Source: an uncultured Acidobacteriota bacterium (GTDB taxonomy: Bacteria > Acidobacteriota > Blastocatellia > RBC074). Taken from it: 64,000 nt of DNA. Each line of letters begins with the position of its first letter. Positions within the stretch are counted from its first letter, which is position 1. The position numbers and the translations under genes are program-made. The notes beneath the pieces were generated by a model. It was given only the letters and a program-made list of their open reading frames with translations. It was not told where the DNA came from and searched no databases. Positions 2,069 through 31,417 of the stretch are shown here, in pieces. Where the stretch lies: contig CAWCKY010000001.1 of assembly GCA_963796275.1 (NCBI GenBank), positions 320,001 through 384,000 on the forward strand. Direction: 5' to 3'.

Positions 2069-3622
2069 TCATTGCAATCTACTTTTGACGGATTTACCGA
2101 TTGCGACGTGAAAGATCGCGCTCTTGCCTGCTGCGTGCGGCGAGAAAAATTTGATTACGTCGTCGTCATAAAACGTAAGTCCGGTCGCTCCGAACCCCTG
2201 GCCATAGGCTGCCAGGTACATCTTCCCTCCGATAATTCCGGCCTCAAGCTGCACTGCCCGATATCCGCGATTGCCATAGCGTTCAAGCACCGATTTCAAA
2301 TCGGCGATTAAGAACGCGGTCGCGCTCGCGTCTTCAGGCAGTTTCTGTTCGAGGCCGAGATACCCTGCCTCCTCGCGAAACGAACCTGCTTTGAGTAACT
2401 CCAATGCCCGGGCATCGCGGTGGAATACATAAGCACCTGGCTGCAACCCTTCTATCGCATGCACAATCAAATAAATTTCATTGAGATGCGTATGCGAGGG
2501 ATCGAGGAAATCGGCTGGGATCGTTTGCAGGGAGCTGAGAAGCCAGGTTGAGAATTCCCCGAAACTGATCGCCTCGCCGCGTGCGAAACGCCGCGTCGAT
2601 CCGCGCTTTAAAATTACGTCCCCGAGCTGCGTGGGCGACGCATCTCCATCGCTCAAAGGCACGAGCGGGATCATATCTCCTACCGGATCAGGGAGGAGTT
2701 GCTGCGGTGTGTCTCCGCGCCATTCCCGGACTTCGGTCTCTGTAACGAGCGATGATGAGTTATGAATCTGGCGCATCACGGGATAGTCAATTTCATTTGG
2801 TGAAAGAGGCACGGTTTCGAAATTGAGCTGTTCGAGCTCCGCCGGCGGTTCCGGCGGCGGGGCTGAAGTACGCCCCAGCGCCACGAGCGAAAAGGCAACT
2901 TCGCGCGCAGAATCGATGCTGAGCAGCCGGTTCACCTGCTCATCCACAAAACCCATCACGACACGCGCCGGAAGGTCGAGCGCCGCAGCCGTTGCGAGCA
3001 AGTTAGCGAGGATAGTGCCATTGTCCCATCCGAAATGCCGATAAGTTCGCGCTTGATATTTCCAGGCATTGCGCCAGTAAGTGCCAGTGCAGATTATCGT
3101 TACAGGAGCAGCGGCAATGGCGGGCTCATTCCCCGTCGCCCTGGCGATCAAGCCGCGATAGTCGCCAGCCCGCAACCGCCGCAAAGACAAGTCCTGAGGG
3201 TTATAGTGATAAATGCCGGAGGACAGATCGGGCAGATCGCTGCAGACAAGATACAATTCTATTTCGTAGAGCGCACCTGTGCAGGAGGCCGCGCGAAAGA
3301 GCATCTCTCCGCCCGGATTTTTTTTGATCTTTGTGATTCCGGCCGAATAATAGAGCAATTGAACGAGCGTGCTCAGATCGGGGACTGTTCCGGCTGCGAG
3401 GTCGGGGTAGGTCGTTGAGATTGCCGCGAGCGCCGGCATCGCTAACGGCGGCGCTTCGCGAGGCAGTACTATAGGACTGAGCGTTGAATAGATTTTAAAT
3501 GGCAGGGGTTTGTTGGACCAATCGAGGAAATGAGCATTTCGGCGAATGCTCCAGAAGGAATGTTTCGTTCCGTCGTGATAGGTCCAGGCCGCTACCAGAT
3601 CGCGGTTATTCATACCGCTCAT
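2069..3622 (-). CDS. SagB/ThcOx-family two-domain nitroreductase-like dehydrogenase
   Basis: RAASCTGALYEIELY, WKYQARTYRH and RYGNRGYRAVQLEAG motifs in a duplicated nitroreductase fold. Confidence 0.85.
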   Translation of the reverse strand: MSGMNNRDLVAAWTYHDGTKHSFWSIRRNAHFLDWSNKPLPFKIYSTLSPIVLPREAPPLAMPALAAISTTYPDLAAGTVPDLSTLVQLLYYSAGITKIKKNPGGEMLFRAASCTGALYEIELYLVCSDLPDLSSGIYHYNPQDLSLRRLRAGDYRGLIARATGNEPAIAAAPVTIICTGTYWRNAWKYQARTYRHFGWDNGTILANLLATAAALDLPARVVMGFVDEQVNRLLSIDSAREVAFSLVALGRTSAPPPEPPAELEQLNFETVPLSPNEIDYPVMRQIHNSSSLVTETEVREWRGDTPQQLLPDPVGDMIPLVPLSDGDASPTQLGDVILKRGSTRRFARGEAISFGEFSTWLLSSLQTIPADFLDPSHTHLNEIYLIVHAIEGLQPGAYVFHRDARALELLKAGSFREEAGYLGLEQKLPEDASATAFLIADLKSVLERYGNRGYRAVQLEAGIIGGKMYLAAYGQGFGATGLTFYDDDVIKFFSPHAAGKSAIFHVAIGKSVKSRLQ

Positions 3623-24165: not shown

Positions 24166-25782
24166 TCATCTATCGCTGGCTCCCGCAATCAGATTGATCA
24201 ATCGTTCGCGGCGTGATCTTACCGGGGCTTCCATAACCACAAACGAAAGGATATAGAAGCCCAGACAAAAGATCAAAATCAGACACGAGACCCACCAGTA
24301 ACGCATATGCATGGTCTGATCCAACCGATCGCTGAAAAAGACCGCCACCCAGAGCGGGACGCTGATCCCGATGATGACCACCAGATTTGCGCAGAATGAG
24401 AGGCGGCTGTTCCACATCGCGTCGAAATTCAATCTTTTCGGCGAGAAGACCGAAGTCCACAATCCGATCGCGTTGAAGAGAAAGAGGCTCGCCACCGCTA
24501 TGCTCAGTATCATGACGATCATTCGCCAGGTGATCGTTTCACCGGCATAAAATATCAGCCACAAGCCAAACGCGACCATGACGGTGATCGTGCGTAACAA
24601 CAGCGAAGCCAGGCTGCCAGCCCGCAGAGCTTCCGCCAATGAGATCGGCAGAATGGCATAACGGCGTATGCCGGCATCATCGTACCCGAAGAGGTTGAAC
24701 ATGAGCGCCGCTCCGGTCGCGCTGCTCAAAATGAAAAAGATTGAGAGCGATAACAGAAAAACTCTATCCTGCCAATTCCACGGTAAAATATATTTTCCCA
24801 TCAGCACGATGATCGGCGAAGTTATCAGGCTGAAGCGGATGATATTTGAACGCAGATGATAACGAAGGGATTTACTAACTATCGGCCCATATCTGCCGCT
24901 CATTAAATTCCCGAGTTGATCGATCAAATCGCTACGGATGACAGTACCCGGAGCGGCGGACCGCGTGCTCGGGGAGCGCCGCTCGAGTCTCGTCAGACTA
25001 TAAGCCAACGCCGCGCACCAGATGAACAGCAGGCCAGTGCCCCCCAATTTGAGGGAGCCATCGCCCGACATCATTGCCGCCGCTGCACCGGGAGGAGTCA
25101 ATTGCAAAAATTGATCGAGCATAAGCCATATATCGAATCGGTGGGCGGCGACCAGCGACGCAATCGCCAGCGGACCGAACGAGACCAGGAGAATCACCAG
25201 AGCGCTGAATAGAGCGGTTCCGCTGCGCGTCTCTACTATAACGCCGGCGAGCGATAGCAAGACCGAGGTCGCCAGGTAACTCACGATGATGAAGAAAATG
25301 GCGGCGGGGAATACCGTCACAATCGATCCATGTCCGGTCCACGCCAAGCCGATCGCCAAACCGAATGCGCCCGCAACAACGATCAACCATACCGGATCGA
25401 GCAACCCGATCGCGTGCCGCACCAAAAATCGCTCCTGAGAATTCAATGGATAATGGCGGAGGGCTTCTTCCGAGAAAGCCGAGCGCGCGCCCAGGCCGAA
25501 GAGAATGCTCAGCCCGACCCCGTTAAAGAACAGCATCGTCAGACCCCATCTCGCGATCGATTCTCCTTCTCCCAACTCAATCGCGCCTTGCGCCATGCCC
25601 CAACCGACGAGCGAAAAAAACAACAGGCTGATTCCGCCGAGCAGGTAAAGAGCGAAGAAGAGTGCCATCCGCCCATTACTGGTGCGGGCTTGCGCCCAGA
25701 TAAGACGATAGCGAAGCCGGATCAGTACCCCGAATTTACGCGGGAATCCTGCCCAATTGATATGTTGCGAATCTACGTGCAC
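24166..25782 (-). CDS. Putative ABC transporter permease (multi-TM)
   Basis: Many hydrophobic segments; directly upstream of the ABC ATPase. Confidence 0.75.
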   Translation of the reverse strand: MHVDSQHINWAGFPRKFGVLIRLRYRLIWAQARTSNGRMALFFALYLLGGISLLFFSLVGWGMAQGAIELGEGESIARWGLTMLFFNGVGLSILFGLGARSAFSEEALRHYPLNSQERFLVRHAIGLLDPVWLIVVAGAFGLAIGLAWTGHGSIVTVFPAAIFFIIVSYLATSVLLSLAGVIVETRSGTALFSALVILLVSFGPLAIASLVAAHRFDIWLMLDQFLQLTPPGAAAAMMSGDGSLKLGGTGLLFIWCAALAYSLTRLERRSPSTRSAAPGTVIRSDLIDQLGNLMSGRYGPIVSKSLRYHLRSNIIRFSLITSPIIVLMGKYILPWNWQDRVFLLSLSIFFILSSATGAALMFNLFGYDDAGIRRYAILPISLAEALRAGSLASLLLRTITVMVAFGLWLIFYAGETITWRMIVMILSIAVASLFLFNAIGLWTSVFSPKRLNFDAMWNSRLSFCANLVVIIGISVPLWVAVFFSDRLDQTMHMRYWWVSCLILIFCLGFYILSFVVMEAPVRSRRERLINLIAGASDR

Positions 25783-25858: not shown

Positions 25859-27181
25859 TCAACATTGCAAATGCGAACGATCGATTGTGAAGCCGTCCAG
25901 ATCGCCCAAAACCGTAACCGCCATTTCAGCCGGTTGGAATATCTGGTTTGCCACCCGGCGCACATCCTGCGCCGTGACCGCGTCAACGTTTACGATGATC
26001 TCATCGGGTGAGATGAAGCGGCCCAATGTCATCTCCTGCTGCGCCAGCGAACTCATGCGTGAGGACGTCGATTCGAGATTGAGCATCAAGGATGCTTTCA
26101 ATTGATCCTTGTTGCGCTCTAATTCTTCTTCCTCAATCAATTCTGATTTGATCCGGACTAGTTCTTCCATCGTAGCTGCAACCGTTTCGTCAAGCTGTTC
26201 GGTCGAAGCGGCGGCATAAATGCTCATGTAACCGCAATCACTGAATGGGTTCGCGGAGGCGAAAATGGTATATACGAGCCCTCTCTCCTCACGTATCGCC
26301 TGAAACAGCCGCGAGCTCATTCCACCGCCTAGAATGACGGACAGGATAGTGGTTGTATATCGGTCTTCGCTAACCGACGAGGGGCATGGCGAACCTATCA
26401 CAAGATGCGATTGCTCGAGCTCGCTTTTGTGCCTGAGGGTTATCGGAGCGGCCGCGACTGGGGGCGTATAGCTCAAGGGAAAGTTGCGCGATCTCATATC
26501 TCCCAAATAGGTCTGCGCCAGATCGATCAACTGGTCATGTTCCAGATTACCCCCAGCCGCAATCACCAGATTGTCCGGCGCGTATAGTTCTTCGTAATAG
26601 GATCGCACGACATCGGGTTTAAATGTCAAAAGTGATTCCGGAGTGCCCAGGATCGGACGTCCGAGCGGGTGGTCCGGATAGAAGTTCTCGCAAAAAATGT
26701 CGAAGATGTAATCATCAGGCGTATCCTCAACCATTTTGATCTCTTCGAGGATGACATTGCGCTCTTTTTCCAGTTCGGATGGATTGAATGCCGGATCGGT
26801 AACCAGATCCGCCATAAGTTCAAAAGCCCGCGGAAGATGTTGATCGAGAACTTTGTTGTAGTAGCCGACGATTTCGCGGCCGGTGAATGCATCCAGATGC
26901 CCGCCAAGCGTGTCGGATTCGGCCGCTATTTGCGCCGCTGAGCGCCTGCGCGTCCCTTTGAAGAGAGCGTGTTCGATGAAATGCGTGAGTCCATGCCGGC
27001 GGTTATCCTCATTGCGCGAGCCTCCTCGTAAAAAAACGCCGAAACTCACCGAACGAACATGCGCCACTTTCTCAGAGACAATCACGAGACCATTATCAAG
27101 CCTCGTTTTGCGTACATCAAAATTGAGATTCGTTGATCTCTCCTGAGTCGATCTTCCATCAGTGCCTGATTTTGATTCCAT
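25859..27181 (-). CDS. M16 (pitrilysin-family) zinc peptidase
   Basis: Inverted zinc motif HFIEH and [23 protein letters not shown] at 27181 preferred over TTG 27202. Confidence 0.95.
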
Positions 27182-27433
27182 TCGCCCATCATACGACAGC
27201 AACTCTTATCGCCCCAAACCTTTATTAACGGGACATAAAATCCCGATGCTTTTAAGTAGTTATACCTAGGAGGAATATGATTGGTGTCGTCAATTGTTGA
27301 CAGGGACATGCCTTCCATGTCCACAATATTAGACATCGATGCTGGTGATTAGAAATCCAAAAAAATGAATTGGGGATGATAAATCACTCTGTTTTATTTA
27401 TTTATACATATTGGAGCTTTGCGGGGATGCTTA

Positions 27434-27449
27434 TGGCACGGTCATTGCT
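27434..27449 (+). promoter_or_regulatory. Sigma-54 (RpoN) -24/-12 promoter
   Basis: TGGCACG-GTCA-TTGCT matches the consensus TGGCACG-N4-TTGCW exactly; predicted +1 near 27460. Confidence 0.85.
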
Positions 27450-27648
27450 AAGAGTATATATCGTAAAACAAAAAGAACCGGGTAATCTTCAAGGTTCGAG
27501 AATTCATTTTGCAAAAATTAAACCAGACGGAAGGATCGTTACGGGCAGCTCGAGTTTACGGGTTTGACCTCACAATCGACACGGCTTCGACGCGCCGCGC
27601 GGTTCTTCCGAAACAGGTAGATGGTTTGGAGCGCTGCTCCCAAGGGAA

Positions 27649-28391
27649 TGTAGTGATCGGTTAAAGAAAAGGACACGGGGGTCGGATTTAGCCGGTAACT
27701 ACAGCTTCGATTCGCAGGTTACGCCACGCAGGGAACGGGGCACACTGTTTGGCGTAACTTGCGAATCGGCCGAAAGGCTGGGCTACGAATAAATTCCCTG
27801 AGGTAGAGCCCAAGATTTTTGAGTTATTGTTCTTGCGGTTTTGAAAGATCTTTGATTCTCAGTCGGAAATACGGGATAGATGCTCTATTGGATTTTGAGA
27901 ATCACAAGTTTCGATTCTCAGGTTGCTCTGCCTGGAGAACGGGGCACGCCAGGTGGTGCGACCTGAGGATCGATACCTAGAATTGAAAATTCTGTAATTG
28001 ATAATTCTTTGAAAGATAATCGTCGAGCGCATCGCTCCGATTTGAGATTGTAATTGTCAGTTGGAAAAGACACGGGGGTCGGATTTTAGCTGTCAATTAC
28101 AATAGCGATTCGCAGGTTACGTCATTCGGAGAACGGGGCACACCGTGTGGCGTAGCTTGCGGATCGAACAAAAGAGTTGAGAACACAGCAGTCTTTAGTC
28201 CGTAGTCTTTATACACAGCATATACACAGATATAGAATTTGACGATTTGGGAGCAGGGCTCTCAAAGGTAATGTAGTGATCGGTTAAAGAAAAGGACACG
28301 GGGGTCGGATTTAGCCGGTGACTACAGCTTCGATTCGCAGGTTACAGCATACAGGGAACGGGGCACACTGTTTGGTGTAGCTTGCGAATCG
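27649..28391 (+). repeat. Four tandem ~200-nt units, each hairpin A + hairpin B
   Basis: Units start at 27649, 27853, 28047 and 28272. Units 1 and 4 match at 75 of 76 nt (27647-27722 vs 28270-28345). GAACGGGGCAC is present in all four B loops. Confidence 0.92.
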
Positions 28392-28611
28392 GTTGCATTT
28401 TGAGCAAAGATTTTGGTAGAGCGCGGTCCCCACACTGCGCTTGTCACTCTTAAGGCTGAAACCCACTCAGCCCGAATGTGGCATCGAGCCCTCACAATCA
28501 TGTCCACAAATAATGTCTTCTCCCGCTACTAAGGGCTTCTCCTACTTGAGGCCCAAGGGCTCATGTGGTTTTTTCCGTAAGGCACTGATGTGCAGTGAGG
28601 GTCCTCACCCC

Positions 28612-28667
28612 AGCAATAATGGGCTGCTAGCAGTCTGAAAAGGCTACTGGCAGCCCAATGTTGCTTT
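28612..28667 (+). terminator. Long terminal hairpin, probable 3' end of the ncRNA
   Basis: AGCAATA-A-TGGGCTGCTAG-C-AGTCT[GAAA]AGGCT-A-CTGGCAGCCCA-A-TGTTGCT followed by only a short T run. Confidence 0.6.
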
Positions 28668-28742
28668 ACGGGCGCTATGTTATACTGCCTTGCGCAATTT
28701 CAGCATAATGACTAAGTATAACGATTAAGCATTAATCACTCG

Positions 28743-30011
28743 ATGACTAGGTTTCTTCACATCGCTGACATTCATCTGGGCATCCGGCGTTACCGTTCCG
28801 AAGATCGAGCACGCGACTTCTTTCTCGCATGGCGGGACTGCATCGAACGCTATGCCCTCGCCGAAAAAGTATCGTTCGTGCTGATCGCCGGCGATCTCTT
28901 CGATGCCCGCAAGGTCGAGCCCCAGGCGATGAATCAGGCGATGTTCTGCCTCTCGAAATTGCGCGACGCCGGGATACCCGTCGTAGTCATTGAGGGTAAC
29001 CATGACTGTCACGAGGCCGAGAAGCGATTCAGTTGGTTGCGCAGCCTATCGCAATGGGGATTCATCCATCTGCTCGAACCGATATATGGTGAAAGCGGCT
29101 TGAGACTGCTCCCGTGGGATGCCGATTCCAGGACAGGATCATTCATCGACATAGACGGCGCGCGCATCTTCGGCTCGATCTGGTATGGATCGACTGTCAG
29201 TCAGGCGCTCCCAGGGTTGATCGATGAATTGCGCAACCACCACAGCGACCGCCATTTTAACATAATGATGCTCCATACCGATGTCGAGGGCCAGCTCAAC
29301 CGCCCGATTCCCGCGCTGACGGTGTCGAAGATCAATGAACTTCGGTCATATATCGACTACCTGGCTCTCGGTCATACTCACAAAAACTTCGAGATCGACG
29401 GCTGGGTGTACAACCCGGGTTCGCTCGAGGCTTGCAATGTTGACGAATATGCGAATGTGCGCGGGGCGTATCTGGTGGAAATCAAAGATGGCCGGCATAA
29501 CGCTCAACTCGTCCGCGATTATCATCAGCGGCCGGTAGTGCGGCTGAGTATCGATGTGAGGGGGCGCGCTACGCCTGAAGAACTGCACGAAGCCTTGTTC
29601 GATCAGCTTCGCTGCCAATTAACTCCTCATAATCCGGCTGAAAACGGTTCTCCCGCTCCGGTCATCGAGCTTTCATTACGGGGTCATCTCGGATTTAAAA
29701 ATTCGCTTCTCGAAATAAATCGCATTCGGGATGAGATCAAAGTAGAATTCAAACCGCTCCTCACGATCGTAAGAAATCAGACTATCCCCATCGAATACGC
29801 GGTCGCCGCGGGAATCAGCGAGCATATTTCGCGTGCCGAACGTGAACGCATGGTGATTGAAGATTTGATCGCACGAGACACGCGGTTCCGCGAGCAAACA
29901 ACCGTCATGGCCGGACTGGTACTTGAAGCCAAGCGCCTGGCGCTTACTGATGAGCTGCCTTCAAAAATTGTCGAACTGATCGAAGAACGTCTCGCTCAGT
30001 CTGGAAATTAG
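28743..30011 (+). CDS. Mre11/SbcD-family DNA repair exonuclease
   Basis: Phosphoesterase motifs [27 protein letters not shown] and YNPGSLE. Confidence 0.92.
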
Positions 30012-30049
30012 TCCCAACTTCGAGCACAATTGCCTGCCGCTTTCGTTTT

Positions 30050-31417
30050 ATGGATAGAGTATTATTGTTTTTAAGCATAGTGATTCTTTTGCAGAGCCTG
30101 TTCGCGCTGGGGGGCGTCGTCCGCTTCGCGCTTTACGCTTTGCGCCGTCAGCCCATACGTCCGAATCGCTATCAGCCGAAAGCCGCTCTCATAGTTCCCT
30201 GCCGGGGTCTCGAACACGATTTCGAGGATAATATCCGCGCCTATATGATTCAGGATTACCGAGATTACGAGATAATCCTCGTCACCGAGAGCGAATCCGA
30301 TCCGGCTTATCCGATTCTGATGAAATTGATCAAGTCTTCACGCCGGCCTGTCTGGATGGTGGTGGCTGGGGAGGCGAAAGCGCAGGGACAAAAGGTTCAT
30401 AATCTCTGTGCGGCAATCGATATGCTCAATTCGATCGACCGTCGCACTGAAGTCCTGGTCTTCGCCGATTCCGATGCGCACGTAGGGCGCAAATGGCTCA
30501 GCGAACTGGTCAACCCGCTAGGCGATAAGAAGACGGGCGCCACCACCGGATTTCGCTGGTTTTTGCCGGCGCATGAGCAGAGATGGATCGGAAACAGGTT
30601 CGCGTCGATTCTCCTCTCGATCTGGAACGCCGGCGCTCTGTCATTACTGGGCGAACGTTCCGGCTTCGCGTGGGGCGGTTCGATGGCGATCCGGCGCGAA
30701 ACTTTTGATAAACTGGGGATAAAAGACGGTTGGCACGGATCGGTCAGCGACGATTATGTTCTTACAGCCGCAATACACCGAGCCGGAAAATCCATAAAAT
30801 TTGTTCCCAGGTGCCTAGTTCCCTCCTACGCCGAATCAACCCTCAAGCAATTGCTAGAATTCACTACCCGGCAGATGCGCATCACCCGCGTCTATTCACC
30901 GAGGATTTGGAAACTGGCTTGCCTGACGCATTGTCTCTACAACCTCACCTTGTGGATCGGACTGTTCCGCCTCTTTTCGCAAGGTTTTGCAGGTGTAGGT
31001 AATCATCTGCTGGCCTGGTTACTTATCGTCATCTTCGCCCTCGGATCGATGAGCGGATGGATCAGAGTGGGAGTGGCGGCCGATTTACTACCGGGGGACC
31101 GCGAGCGAGCTCAGCGGATATGGTGGGCATTCGCGCTGCTGGGGCCTGTTATATCGGCCCTCTACCTCTACAATATCGTCGCTTCGGCCGGAACGAGGCG
31201 CATCATCTGGCGCGGCATCGAATATGACATGATCTCGCCGAGCGAAACGGTCATCCGGCATCGCCCGTCGGAATTGACTGAAGTCATAAACCAGGAATCT
31301 GAAGTCAGAACTCAAAAATCTAGAATCAAAAAACAGAAGTCAAGGATTAAAAAGCTGCAATTAGAAGACGGCAGCCAAGAGACGGGGATGGGTAGCAAAA
31401 AAAGACAAAACAGTTGA
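30050..31417 (+). CDS. Glycosyltransferase family 2/21 (ceramide glucosyltransferase / HpnI-like)
   Basis: QKVHNL, FADSD, WGGSMAI, SDDY and TTRQMR motifs; N- and C-terminal TM segments. Confidence 0.85.

Follow-up and report, generated by a model that had tools for sequence, protein, structure and literature searches.

The window (the whole stretch of DNA analysed, 64,000 nt from an uncultured Acidobacteriota bacterium of the class Blastocatellia) almost certainly contains a real RNA gene that is under selection. As judged from the sequence, the gene would span positions 27285–28672, with four hairpin-pair units (27649–28391) forming its middle. Two TGTC-N10-GACA palindromes and a sigma-54-type promoter come first, then a leader and four modules of two hairpins each, and the C-rich 3' domain that follows is closed by a hairpin resembling a terminator (Table 1); the promoter, the start and the end of the RNA are predictions. 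A first-pass annotation of this DNA covered the repeat core only; neither the promoter and 3' domain nor the phylogenetic distribution was part of it. Promoter, palindromes and 3' domain emerged from an alignment of the entire intergenic region with two relatives of the same genus.

Table 1. Features of the RNA gene and its neighbours, with positions in the window
Feature	Position	Strand	Remarks
Upstream palindrome 1, TGTCGTCAATTGTTGACA (TGTC-N10-GACA)	27285–27302	+	Candidate site for a sigma-54 activator (bEBP)
Upstream palindrome 2, TGTCCACAATATTAGACA	27318–27335	+	Pair with palindrome 1
Sigma-54-type promoter, TGGCACGGTCATTGC (-24 GG / -12 GC)	27434–27448	+	Predicted start near 27460
Leader, ~190 nt, weak conservation	27460–27648	+	Last element a small hairpin, GGAGC-GCU-GCUCC (27628–27640)
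Unit 1	27649–27768	+	Hairpin A 27649–27703, apex ACGGGGGUCGGA; hairpin B 27708–27768, loop GGGAACGGGGCACA
Unit 2	27853–27972	+	Hairpin A 27853–27904, degenerate apex; hairpin B 27912–27972
Unit 3	28047–28166	+	Hairpin A 28047–28103; hairpin B 28106–28166
Unit 4	28272–28391	+	Hairpin A 28272–28326; hairpin B 28331–28391; 91–94% identity to unit 1
Conserved 3' domain, C-rich single strands and loops	28412–28672	+	GUCUUCUCCCGCUA, CUUCUCC in a loop, GGGUCCUCACCCCAGCA
M16 peptidase gene, divergent upstream neighbour	25859–27202	-	Outside the RNA gene
Mre11/SbcD-like metallophosphoesterase gene, downstream neighbour	28743–30011	+	Outside the RNA gene

Locus organization

The Mre11-like gene lies immediately downstream, on the same strand, in 23 of the 28 loci that were found via the RNA. 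Nevertheless, the RNA locus is regarded, on sequence grounds, as a gene in its own right and independent of its neighbours, because the Mre11-like gene occurs without array, promoter or 3' domain in 14 loci, the M16 gene is upstream in only 17 of 34 array loci, a full RNA gene (palindromes, promoter, five units, 3' domain and terminator) is followed by a NUDIX gene in locus L031, and a TATACT box is located just 5' of the Mre11-like gene. Further upstream in the window, a 538-aa ORF (24166–25782, - strand) has no Pfam or NCBIfam match; a homologue of it lies upstream of the RNA gene in locus L014.

Structure of the hairpin pairs

All sequence statements of the first-pass annotation hold when checked on the window. 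It had described stems that diverge while their pairing is kept, and the outer stem of hairpin A reads TGTAGT/ACTACA in units 1 and 4 (27649–27654 / 27698–27703, and 623 nt further on in unit 4), TGATTCTCA/TGAGAATCA in unit 2 (27853–27861 / 27896–27904) and ATTGTAATTG/CAATTACAAT in unit 3 (28047–28056 / 28094–28103). The apex GACACGGGGGTC is present exactly at 27672, 28069 and 28295, i.e. in units 1, 3 and 4, and absent from unit 2. As for the proposed hexaloop closed by GAC/GTC, the apex sequence stands, while the register is one of two possible readings. The invariant closing pairs at this apex are an A-U and a C-G pair around GGGG, each found in 98 of 98 homologous units.

The hairpin B loop GAACGGGGCAC occurs exactly at 27733, 27937, 28131 and 28356; at up to one mismatch, five matches are found versus 0.95 expected. 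Hairpin B is 61 nt long in all four units with a stem of 20+4 pairs, in which the G-C pair 27723/27753 is replaced by A-T at 28346/28376, as had been noticed. The linkers are AU-rich and carry small spacer hairpins, and a GGCC-GAAA-GGCU mini-hairpin follows unit 1.

Folding was compared between both strands and shuffled sequences, as the annotation had proposed. On the + strand, the folding energy of single units is -58.4 to -60.6 kcal/mol (z -6.5 to -9.7, with 0 of 200 shuffles as good); on the - strand it is -30.8 to -44.7 kcal/mol (z -3.3 to -5.6). For the region 27640–28400, the values are -307.1 kcal/mol (z -16.3) on the + strand versus -204.9 kcal/mol (z -5.7) on the - strand, based on 20 shuffles each, and a hairpin B covariance model scores 84–91 bits versus 33–42 bits. 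The + strand is clearly the better folder, and the equal or better folding of the - strand that would have spoken against the annotation was not observed. This large strand asymmetry rests on G-U pairs. In the fold of the whole predicted transcript, every module is kept and the ACGGGG loops are unpaired. A structural alignment of the four units, the other comparison suggested, gave 41 pairs in RNAalifold, 11 of them with compensatory double changes.

Strand asymmetry, covariation among the homologues and fixed loops support the earlier claim that selection acts on the structure of the + strand RNA and on its loop sequence. The two explanations that the annotation had set aside fare no better here: coding of a peptide is excluded because one-base indels separate close relatives, and a dispersed DNA palindrome is excluded by the single locus per genome.

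Covariation and loop conservation

In a MAFFT alignment of 98 whole units, RNAalifold finds 37 pairs, 34 of which have compensatory double changes, while ACGGGGGUCGG and ACGGGGCAC are invariant or nearly so. Hairpin A displays ACGGGGGUCGGA and hairpin B ACGGGGCAC, with ACGGGG being the only sequence common to both loop contexts. The flanks and the internal-loop shape of both hairpins are conserved as well, and the invariance of the loops extends over 9–12 nt.

When 58 copies of hairpin B were aligned independently and their structure was supplied, double compensatory changes were seen in 24 of 24 pairs. Of the cells, 87.7% can pair, versus 31–39% when the partners are slid by 1–3 columns; none of 500 shuffles reaches the observed values, a count that is not a probability since the 58 sequences are kin. 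As the slid controls fall far lower and many pair types are seen per position, the predicted helix of hairpin B is considered secure. Among 113 distinct stretches bearing ACGGGGCA, 98 have ACGGGGG 58–64 nt upstream. Of the other 15, two are chance matches to coding sequence, and 13 are copies of hairpin B in which no hairpin A can be recognised, as in unit 2 of the window.

Promoter and upstream palindromes

The RNA gene is very likely sigma-54 dependent, as predicted from its promoter. The strict pattern TGGCAY-N5-TTGC is found on the same strand, at most 700 nt upstream, in 31 of the 35 array loci with enough sequence. Only two other strict sigma-54 matches occur in 887 kb (all loci, both strands), leaving one promoter per locus. 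Two of the four loci lacking it were inspected and contain near-variants (TCGC at -12, or TGGAAC at -24). In 30 of 30 loci, the promoter is preceded by at least one palindrome at a distance of 112–201 nt, and two palindromes 31–34 bp apart are present in 23 of these 30 and in none of 30 control regions. Together, palindromes and putative promoter have the classical layout of a promoter with a dedicated sigma-54 activator. rpoN is present in the genome of the window. Scans for sigma-70 promoters and intrinsic terminators gave matches no commoner than in shuffled sequences.

In the own genome, the pair at this locus is the only closely spaced one among 71 single palindromes, so that the search for the regulon of the activator offers no hint at the physiology involved. 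No match to Sigma54_activat was found in the window, with 60 in the genome; across the loci, an AAA+ activator-like match is seen only in L074 and L075, at least 2.3 kb upstream of the RNA gene.

As a separate observation, with 60 matches to their AAA+ domain in 9.46 Mb, ~45 of which are strong, the sigma-54 activators of this genome seem to form a very large repertoire. A second sigma-54-type promoter, TGGCACAGCTATTGC, is present at G000:C3:1391639–1391900 (L119:340–600; C3:1391826), and a single TGTC-N10-GACA palindrome precedes it by 157 nt. Downstream of the promoter are a ~50-nt hairpin with a UUUCCCC loop and a U run, and there is no ORF of at least 80 aa on the same strand for 2 kb. A small RNA served by the same activator may be encoded here; a BLAST search of 40 relatives gave no match to the locus.

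The 3' domain

The 3' domain is ~260 nt long and single copy in the own genome, and its nhmmer matches are confined to array-bearing loci (23 loci and the window). RNAalifold predicts 56 pairs from 15 sequences, 31 with compensatory changes, and the fold exposes C-rich sequences. At its end, a long covarying hairpin (28621–28656), enclosed by CAGCA/UGUUG, precedes a U-rich tail; in the relatives, the terminal hairpin is followed by GCUGUUUU-like tails. The hairpin and U tail look like a terminator. Pairing of the loops with the C-rich 3' domain of the RNA itself was considered and rejected, with duplex energies no better than chance (96–195 of 200 shuffles as good or better).

Distribution and evolution of the array

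All matches to the element in the own 9.46-Mb genome fall at this one locus. With the hairpin B covariance model, arrays were detected in 28 of 36 other genomes of the same Blastocatellia family and in 0 of 24 genomes from other families of the class. The carriers within the family, at E up to 1e-6, amount to 72 of 87 genomes and 12 of 17 genera, with a single locus each. A broader model, built from 58 diverse copies, matches 35 of 38 family genomes, 0 of 112 genomes in nine other families of the class and 0 of 149 genomes across the phylum outside the family. Some of the metagenome-assembled genomes concerned (those of L038, L052, L055, L057 and others) have records titled Heliobacteriaceae or Heliomicrobium, labels that look wrong: they carry the same RNA gene, their Mre11-like protein shows 70–79% identity, and they clearly belong to this Blastocatellia family.

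The arrays contain 1–7 units on one strand, mostly spaced by 150–230 nt, and both the synteny and the order of the units are kept across 12 genera. Where an array has at least four units, its first unit usually resembles its last more closely than any other two units resemble each other (16 of 18 arrays). The terminal units appear to evolve in concert, since in 15 of 17 four-unit arrays the identity of first and last unit within a genome (0.79–0.99) exceeds nearly all comparisons between genomes. Unit 3 is orthologous across genomes, position 3 best matching position 3 in 201 of 272 comparisons. In loci L061–L064, a U run follows each hairpin B, and these arrays may give nested or separate transcripts.

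G-rich tandem repeats

A nonamer repeat of the genome, (ACGGGGCAA)n, shares ACGGGGCA with the hairpin B loop. A link between the two is not supported because the repeat is species-specific: three tandem copies occur 48 times in the own genome (G000), twice in G001, once in G009 and not at all in 58 other relatives, most of which bear the RNA. In the own genome, the repeat (n = 2–8) is found at 82 places, e.g. C1:1145036–1145071 (+), C4:364691–364762 (+) and C2:411668–411694 (-), and nowhere in the region of the window described here. At 72 of the 82 places, the longest covering frame of at least 100 aa is on the repeat's own strand. Where a same-strand frame of at least 150 aa exists (n = 74), the repeat is read as TGQ (44), GAN (23) or RGK/RGN (7), and since all three reading frames are used, this points to a cause at the nucleotide level rather than to a peptide motif. 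Among microsatellites of period 9, this repeat is the dominant one (25 of 45 exact arrays), with (AGGGGC)n as the commonest period-6 repeat (7 of 35). One relative (locus L108, G011:C245, ~2950–3010) has another G-rich tandem repeat, (GACGGGGC)n with a unit of 8 nt, near a BlaR1-like gene. The family thus shows recurrent G-rich microsatellites whose period varies.

Representation in soil metatranscriptomes

The RNA shows signs of very high abundance in soil metatranscriptomes. Two RNA runs (X14 and X20, soil metatranscriptomes of one study and the only RNA among 24 runs) and two DNA runs were compared to positions 26000–30500 at 85% likeness. Over 27510–27811, the depth is 99–189 in X14 and 29–161 in X20, and over 28265–28566 it is 142–972 and 39–277, respectively, versus 0–7 over both flanking genes in the two RNA runs; the DNA runs remain at ~5–16 in all these regions. 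RNA-library depth is highest over the 3' part (28265–28566, reaching into the 3' domain) and lower over units 2 and 3 than over units 1 and 4. The contigs of the RNA runs measure 86–386 nt and stem from relatives (85–99% alike), and they indicate the abundance of conserved parts, not ends, strand or processing. They skip 27208–27509 and 28567–28717, where the relatives differ, and are uninformative on the ends of the RNA.

Comparison with known RNAs

A search of the 64-kb window against Rfam 15 at gathering thresholds gave no match. Within 27200–28800, at E up to 10, five chance-level matches (snoRNA, miRNA, JA03 and rliB; E 2.2 or worse) were obtained, and none to NrsZ, CrcZ, Acido-1, nadA or mini-ykkC. 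Acido-1 and Acido-Lenti-1, the two Acidobacteria motifs in a survey of 104 motifs, were both submitted to Rfam and gave no match here in the Rfam search. In the literature searched, structured RNA motifs in Acidobacteria came up in papers on the nadA/NAD+ riboswitch and in this survey. A full-text search of the published literature, with the supplements of motif surveys outside its scope, returned nothing on noncoding RNA of Blastocatellia or on an Acidobacteria sRNA with RpoN. The RNA is probably a new, previously undescribed family, with an unnamed equivalent possibly present in survey supplements.

According to PMC4253122, NrsZ of Pseudomonas has an RpoN promoter, one to six stem-loops depending on the species, one loop motif, spacer hairpins and processing into modules. 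The RNA described here is similar in its RpoN-type promoter TGGCAC-N5-TTGC (31 of 35 loci; consensus per PMC4253122) with upstream activator sites, and in its repeated stem-loops with an identical loop motif and spacer hairpins, the modules numbering 1–7 here and 1–6 in NrsZ. The loop motif of NrsZ is ACAGGCAG, and its modules are single hairpins of ~60 nt with no conserved 3' domain described, whereas ACGGGG (within ACGGGGCAC and ACGGGGGUCGGA), hairpin pairs of ~120 nt and such a domain are found here. The two also differ in their hosts, Pseudomonas versus Blastocatellia. NrsZ is further marked by NtrC control, while the candidate activator sites here are the TGTC-N10-GACA palindromes.

CrcZ is transcribed from a sigma-54 promoter under a dedicated two-component activator (CbrB) and carries A-rich motifs (AAnAAnAA) that bind Hfq. 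As described in PMC4063720 and PMC5113210, CrcZ and CrcY of Pseudomonas are several hundred nt long, with several motif copies, and sequester Hfq (with Crc). By analogy, the present RNA would resemble them as a multi-copy motif RNA for which sequestration of an RNA-binding protein is proposed. Their motifs are A-rich and single-stranded, whereas the invariant motif here is G-rich and placed in hairpin loops; an A-rich stretch (e.g. AAAGAAAAGG) is found on the 5' side of the hairpin A internal loop only, and its sequence varies.

The decoys CsrB, RsmY and RsmZ consist of many hairpins with a GGA loop motif, titrate dimeric CsrA/RsmA and are not known to be sigma-54 dependent. Many hairpins with one short loop motif are also seen here, but the motif is ACGGGG, and CsrA (PF02599) was not found in the own genome (G000, 94.7% complete), the control search being positive in three genomes. 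ANTAR dual-hairpin sites and the EutX/Rli55 decoy combine two adjacent short hairpins, each with a hexaloop that has A as its first and G as its fourth base, and one protein reads both. The neighbouring hairpins with related loops are reminiscent of such sites, and ACGGGG read as a hexaloop in hairpin A has A1 and G4; the hairpin B loop of 11–13 nt, the ~60 nt between the loops and the long stems differ from them. ANTAR (PF03861) had no match in the own genome, in a search that is uninformative as its control matched nowhere either. Hfq is present in the genome and is not implicated, the invariant motif not being a known Hfq motif. None of these three proteins is supported as a named partner.

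Proposed function

The RNA probably acts in trans, through multivalent binding by its loops, and its partner may be a protein. The best overall model, adopted tentatively, is a trans-acting modular regulatory RNA of ~1.2 kb (about 27460–28670, + strand) that is controlled by a sigma-54 activator and titrates its partner. In this model, a dedicated activator would bind the palindromes and switch the gene on upon some signal. The RNA, either whole or cut into modules at the AU-rich linkers, would then present 2 x n copies of ACGGGG, with the rigid, exposed ACGGGGGUCGGA on hairpin A and ACGGGGCAC on hairpin B binding one kind of partner in many copies. An RNA-binding protein would be the likeliest candidate, titrated as Hfq is by CrcZ or RsmA by RsmZ. 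The C-rich 3' domain beside the terminator may also serve as a base-pairing arm.

Protein titration is favoured because the hairpins share only ACGGGG yet keep their own flanks and internal-loop shape, because up to 14 sites are displayed, because loop-complementary sites are not enriched at gene starts, and because the sole good candidate target site is not conserved. Several points count against the model: CsrA was not found and the invariant motif is no known Hfq motif, the promoter and both ends of the RNA are predictions, the RNA-library evidence comes from contigs of relatives in a single study, invariant loops of 9–12 nt are equally typical of base-pairing seeds, as in NrsZ, and the Mre11-like gene lies just downstream in 23 of the 28 loci found via the RNA, making read-through possible.

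If the loops are seeds, the RNA would be a base-pairing regulator of the NrsZ type: a sigma-54 transcript cut into modules, with the loops kissing C-rich sites (GUGCCCCGU, GACCCCCGU) in one or a few mRNAs. The design matches that of NrsZ in PMC4253122 (RpoN promoter, repeated stem-loops, spacers and processing), with 1–7 modules, AU-rich linkers, spacer hairpins and loop invariance over 9–12 nt seen here. Yet the search for mRNA targets complementary to the loops makes this explanation doubtful. There is no enrichment at gene starts, as 1 of 49 GTGCCCCGT and 2 of 35 GACCCCCGT sites in the own genome are near a start codon with a Shine-Dalgarno sequence. The best candidate, a stretch of 11 complementary nt in front of a BlaR1-like M56 gene, was rejected since the site is absent from 14 of 14 orthologous loci. 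Moreover, two loop types would demand two different target sites. Alternatively, the Mre11/SbcD-like gene could have the RNA as a long 5' leader that acts in cis (riboswitch or attenuator array). Such leaders keep to a single gene class and have an expression platform that overlaps the gene's start or a terminator. The RNA has the orientation of the gene, the gene follows immediately in those 23 of 28 loci, and the arrangement is identical in all array loci found via the gene. Such a leader is nonetheless very improbable: a conserved terminator-like hairpin with U tail lies in between, the TATACT box is just upstream of the gene, RNA-library depth falls from hundreds to 0–7 at the gene, 14 loci have the gene without the RNA, L031 has the RNA before a NUDIX gene, and up to seven repeats plus a gap of 130–520 nt fit no known expression platform.

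It is likewise improbable that the array represents separate small RNA genes, each module having its own promoter and hairpin B acting as terminator. Hairpin B lacks a U tail in the window and in most relatives, even though a U run follows each copy in L061–L064. The one sigma-70-like match before unit 4 (28210–28238) is not conserved in relatives of the same genus, and promoter-like matches number 1 versus 2.8 expected from shuffles, with only one sigma-54 promoter per locus. The RNA-library depth, lower over units 2–3 than over units 1 and 4, would agree with separate genes but can reflect the lesser similarity of these units to the relatives in those runs. That the array is a selfish element or a repeat at the DNA level, be it a palindrome of the REP or MITE kind, a CRISPR-like array or a type III antitoxin repeat, is scarcely conceivable. 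What recalls such elements are the direct repeats of ~200 bp with inverted repeats inside each, and terminal units that are nearly identical within a genome. Against this stand one locus per genome, synteny and unit order conserved in 12 genera, strand-specific G-U pairing, stems that diverge around fixed loops, and units that greatly exceed CRISPR or ToxI repeats in length and divergence. REP/MITE repeats, which are dispersed in many copies over a genome, were rejected with every match in the 9.46-Mb genome at this locus. Type III toxin-antitoxin RNAs have near-identical repeats of 34–45 nt directly upstream of an endoribonuclease toxin gene. A ToxI-like array was discarded as well, the units here being ~120 nt long, spaced by 150–230 nt and, when not terminal, 55–81% alike, next to a gene for an Mre11-like phosphoesterase.

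Significance

Acidobacteria are among the most abundant soil bacteria. The locus is a well-defined RNA gene with strong covariation, a predicted sigma-54 switch and a clear binding motif, and offers an entry point to post-transcriptional control in this group of Acidobacteria and to the signal of the sigma-54 activator. It is also an example of a modular RNA that appears to keep its terminal modules alike by concerted evolution. In a wider, rather unlikely reading, the RNA is the decoy arm of an undescribed global post-transcriptional system with a sensor and a sigma-54 activator, in which 2–14 ACGGGG loops would sequester an RNA-binding protein while the C-rich 3' domain pairs with Shine-Dalgarno-like sequences. 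If true, this decoy system would do in these soil Acidobacteria what Csr/Rsm or Crc/Hfq-CrcZ do elsewhere; the only genome of the family checked for CsrA is without it.
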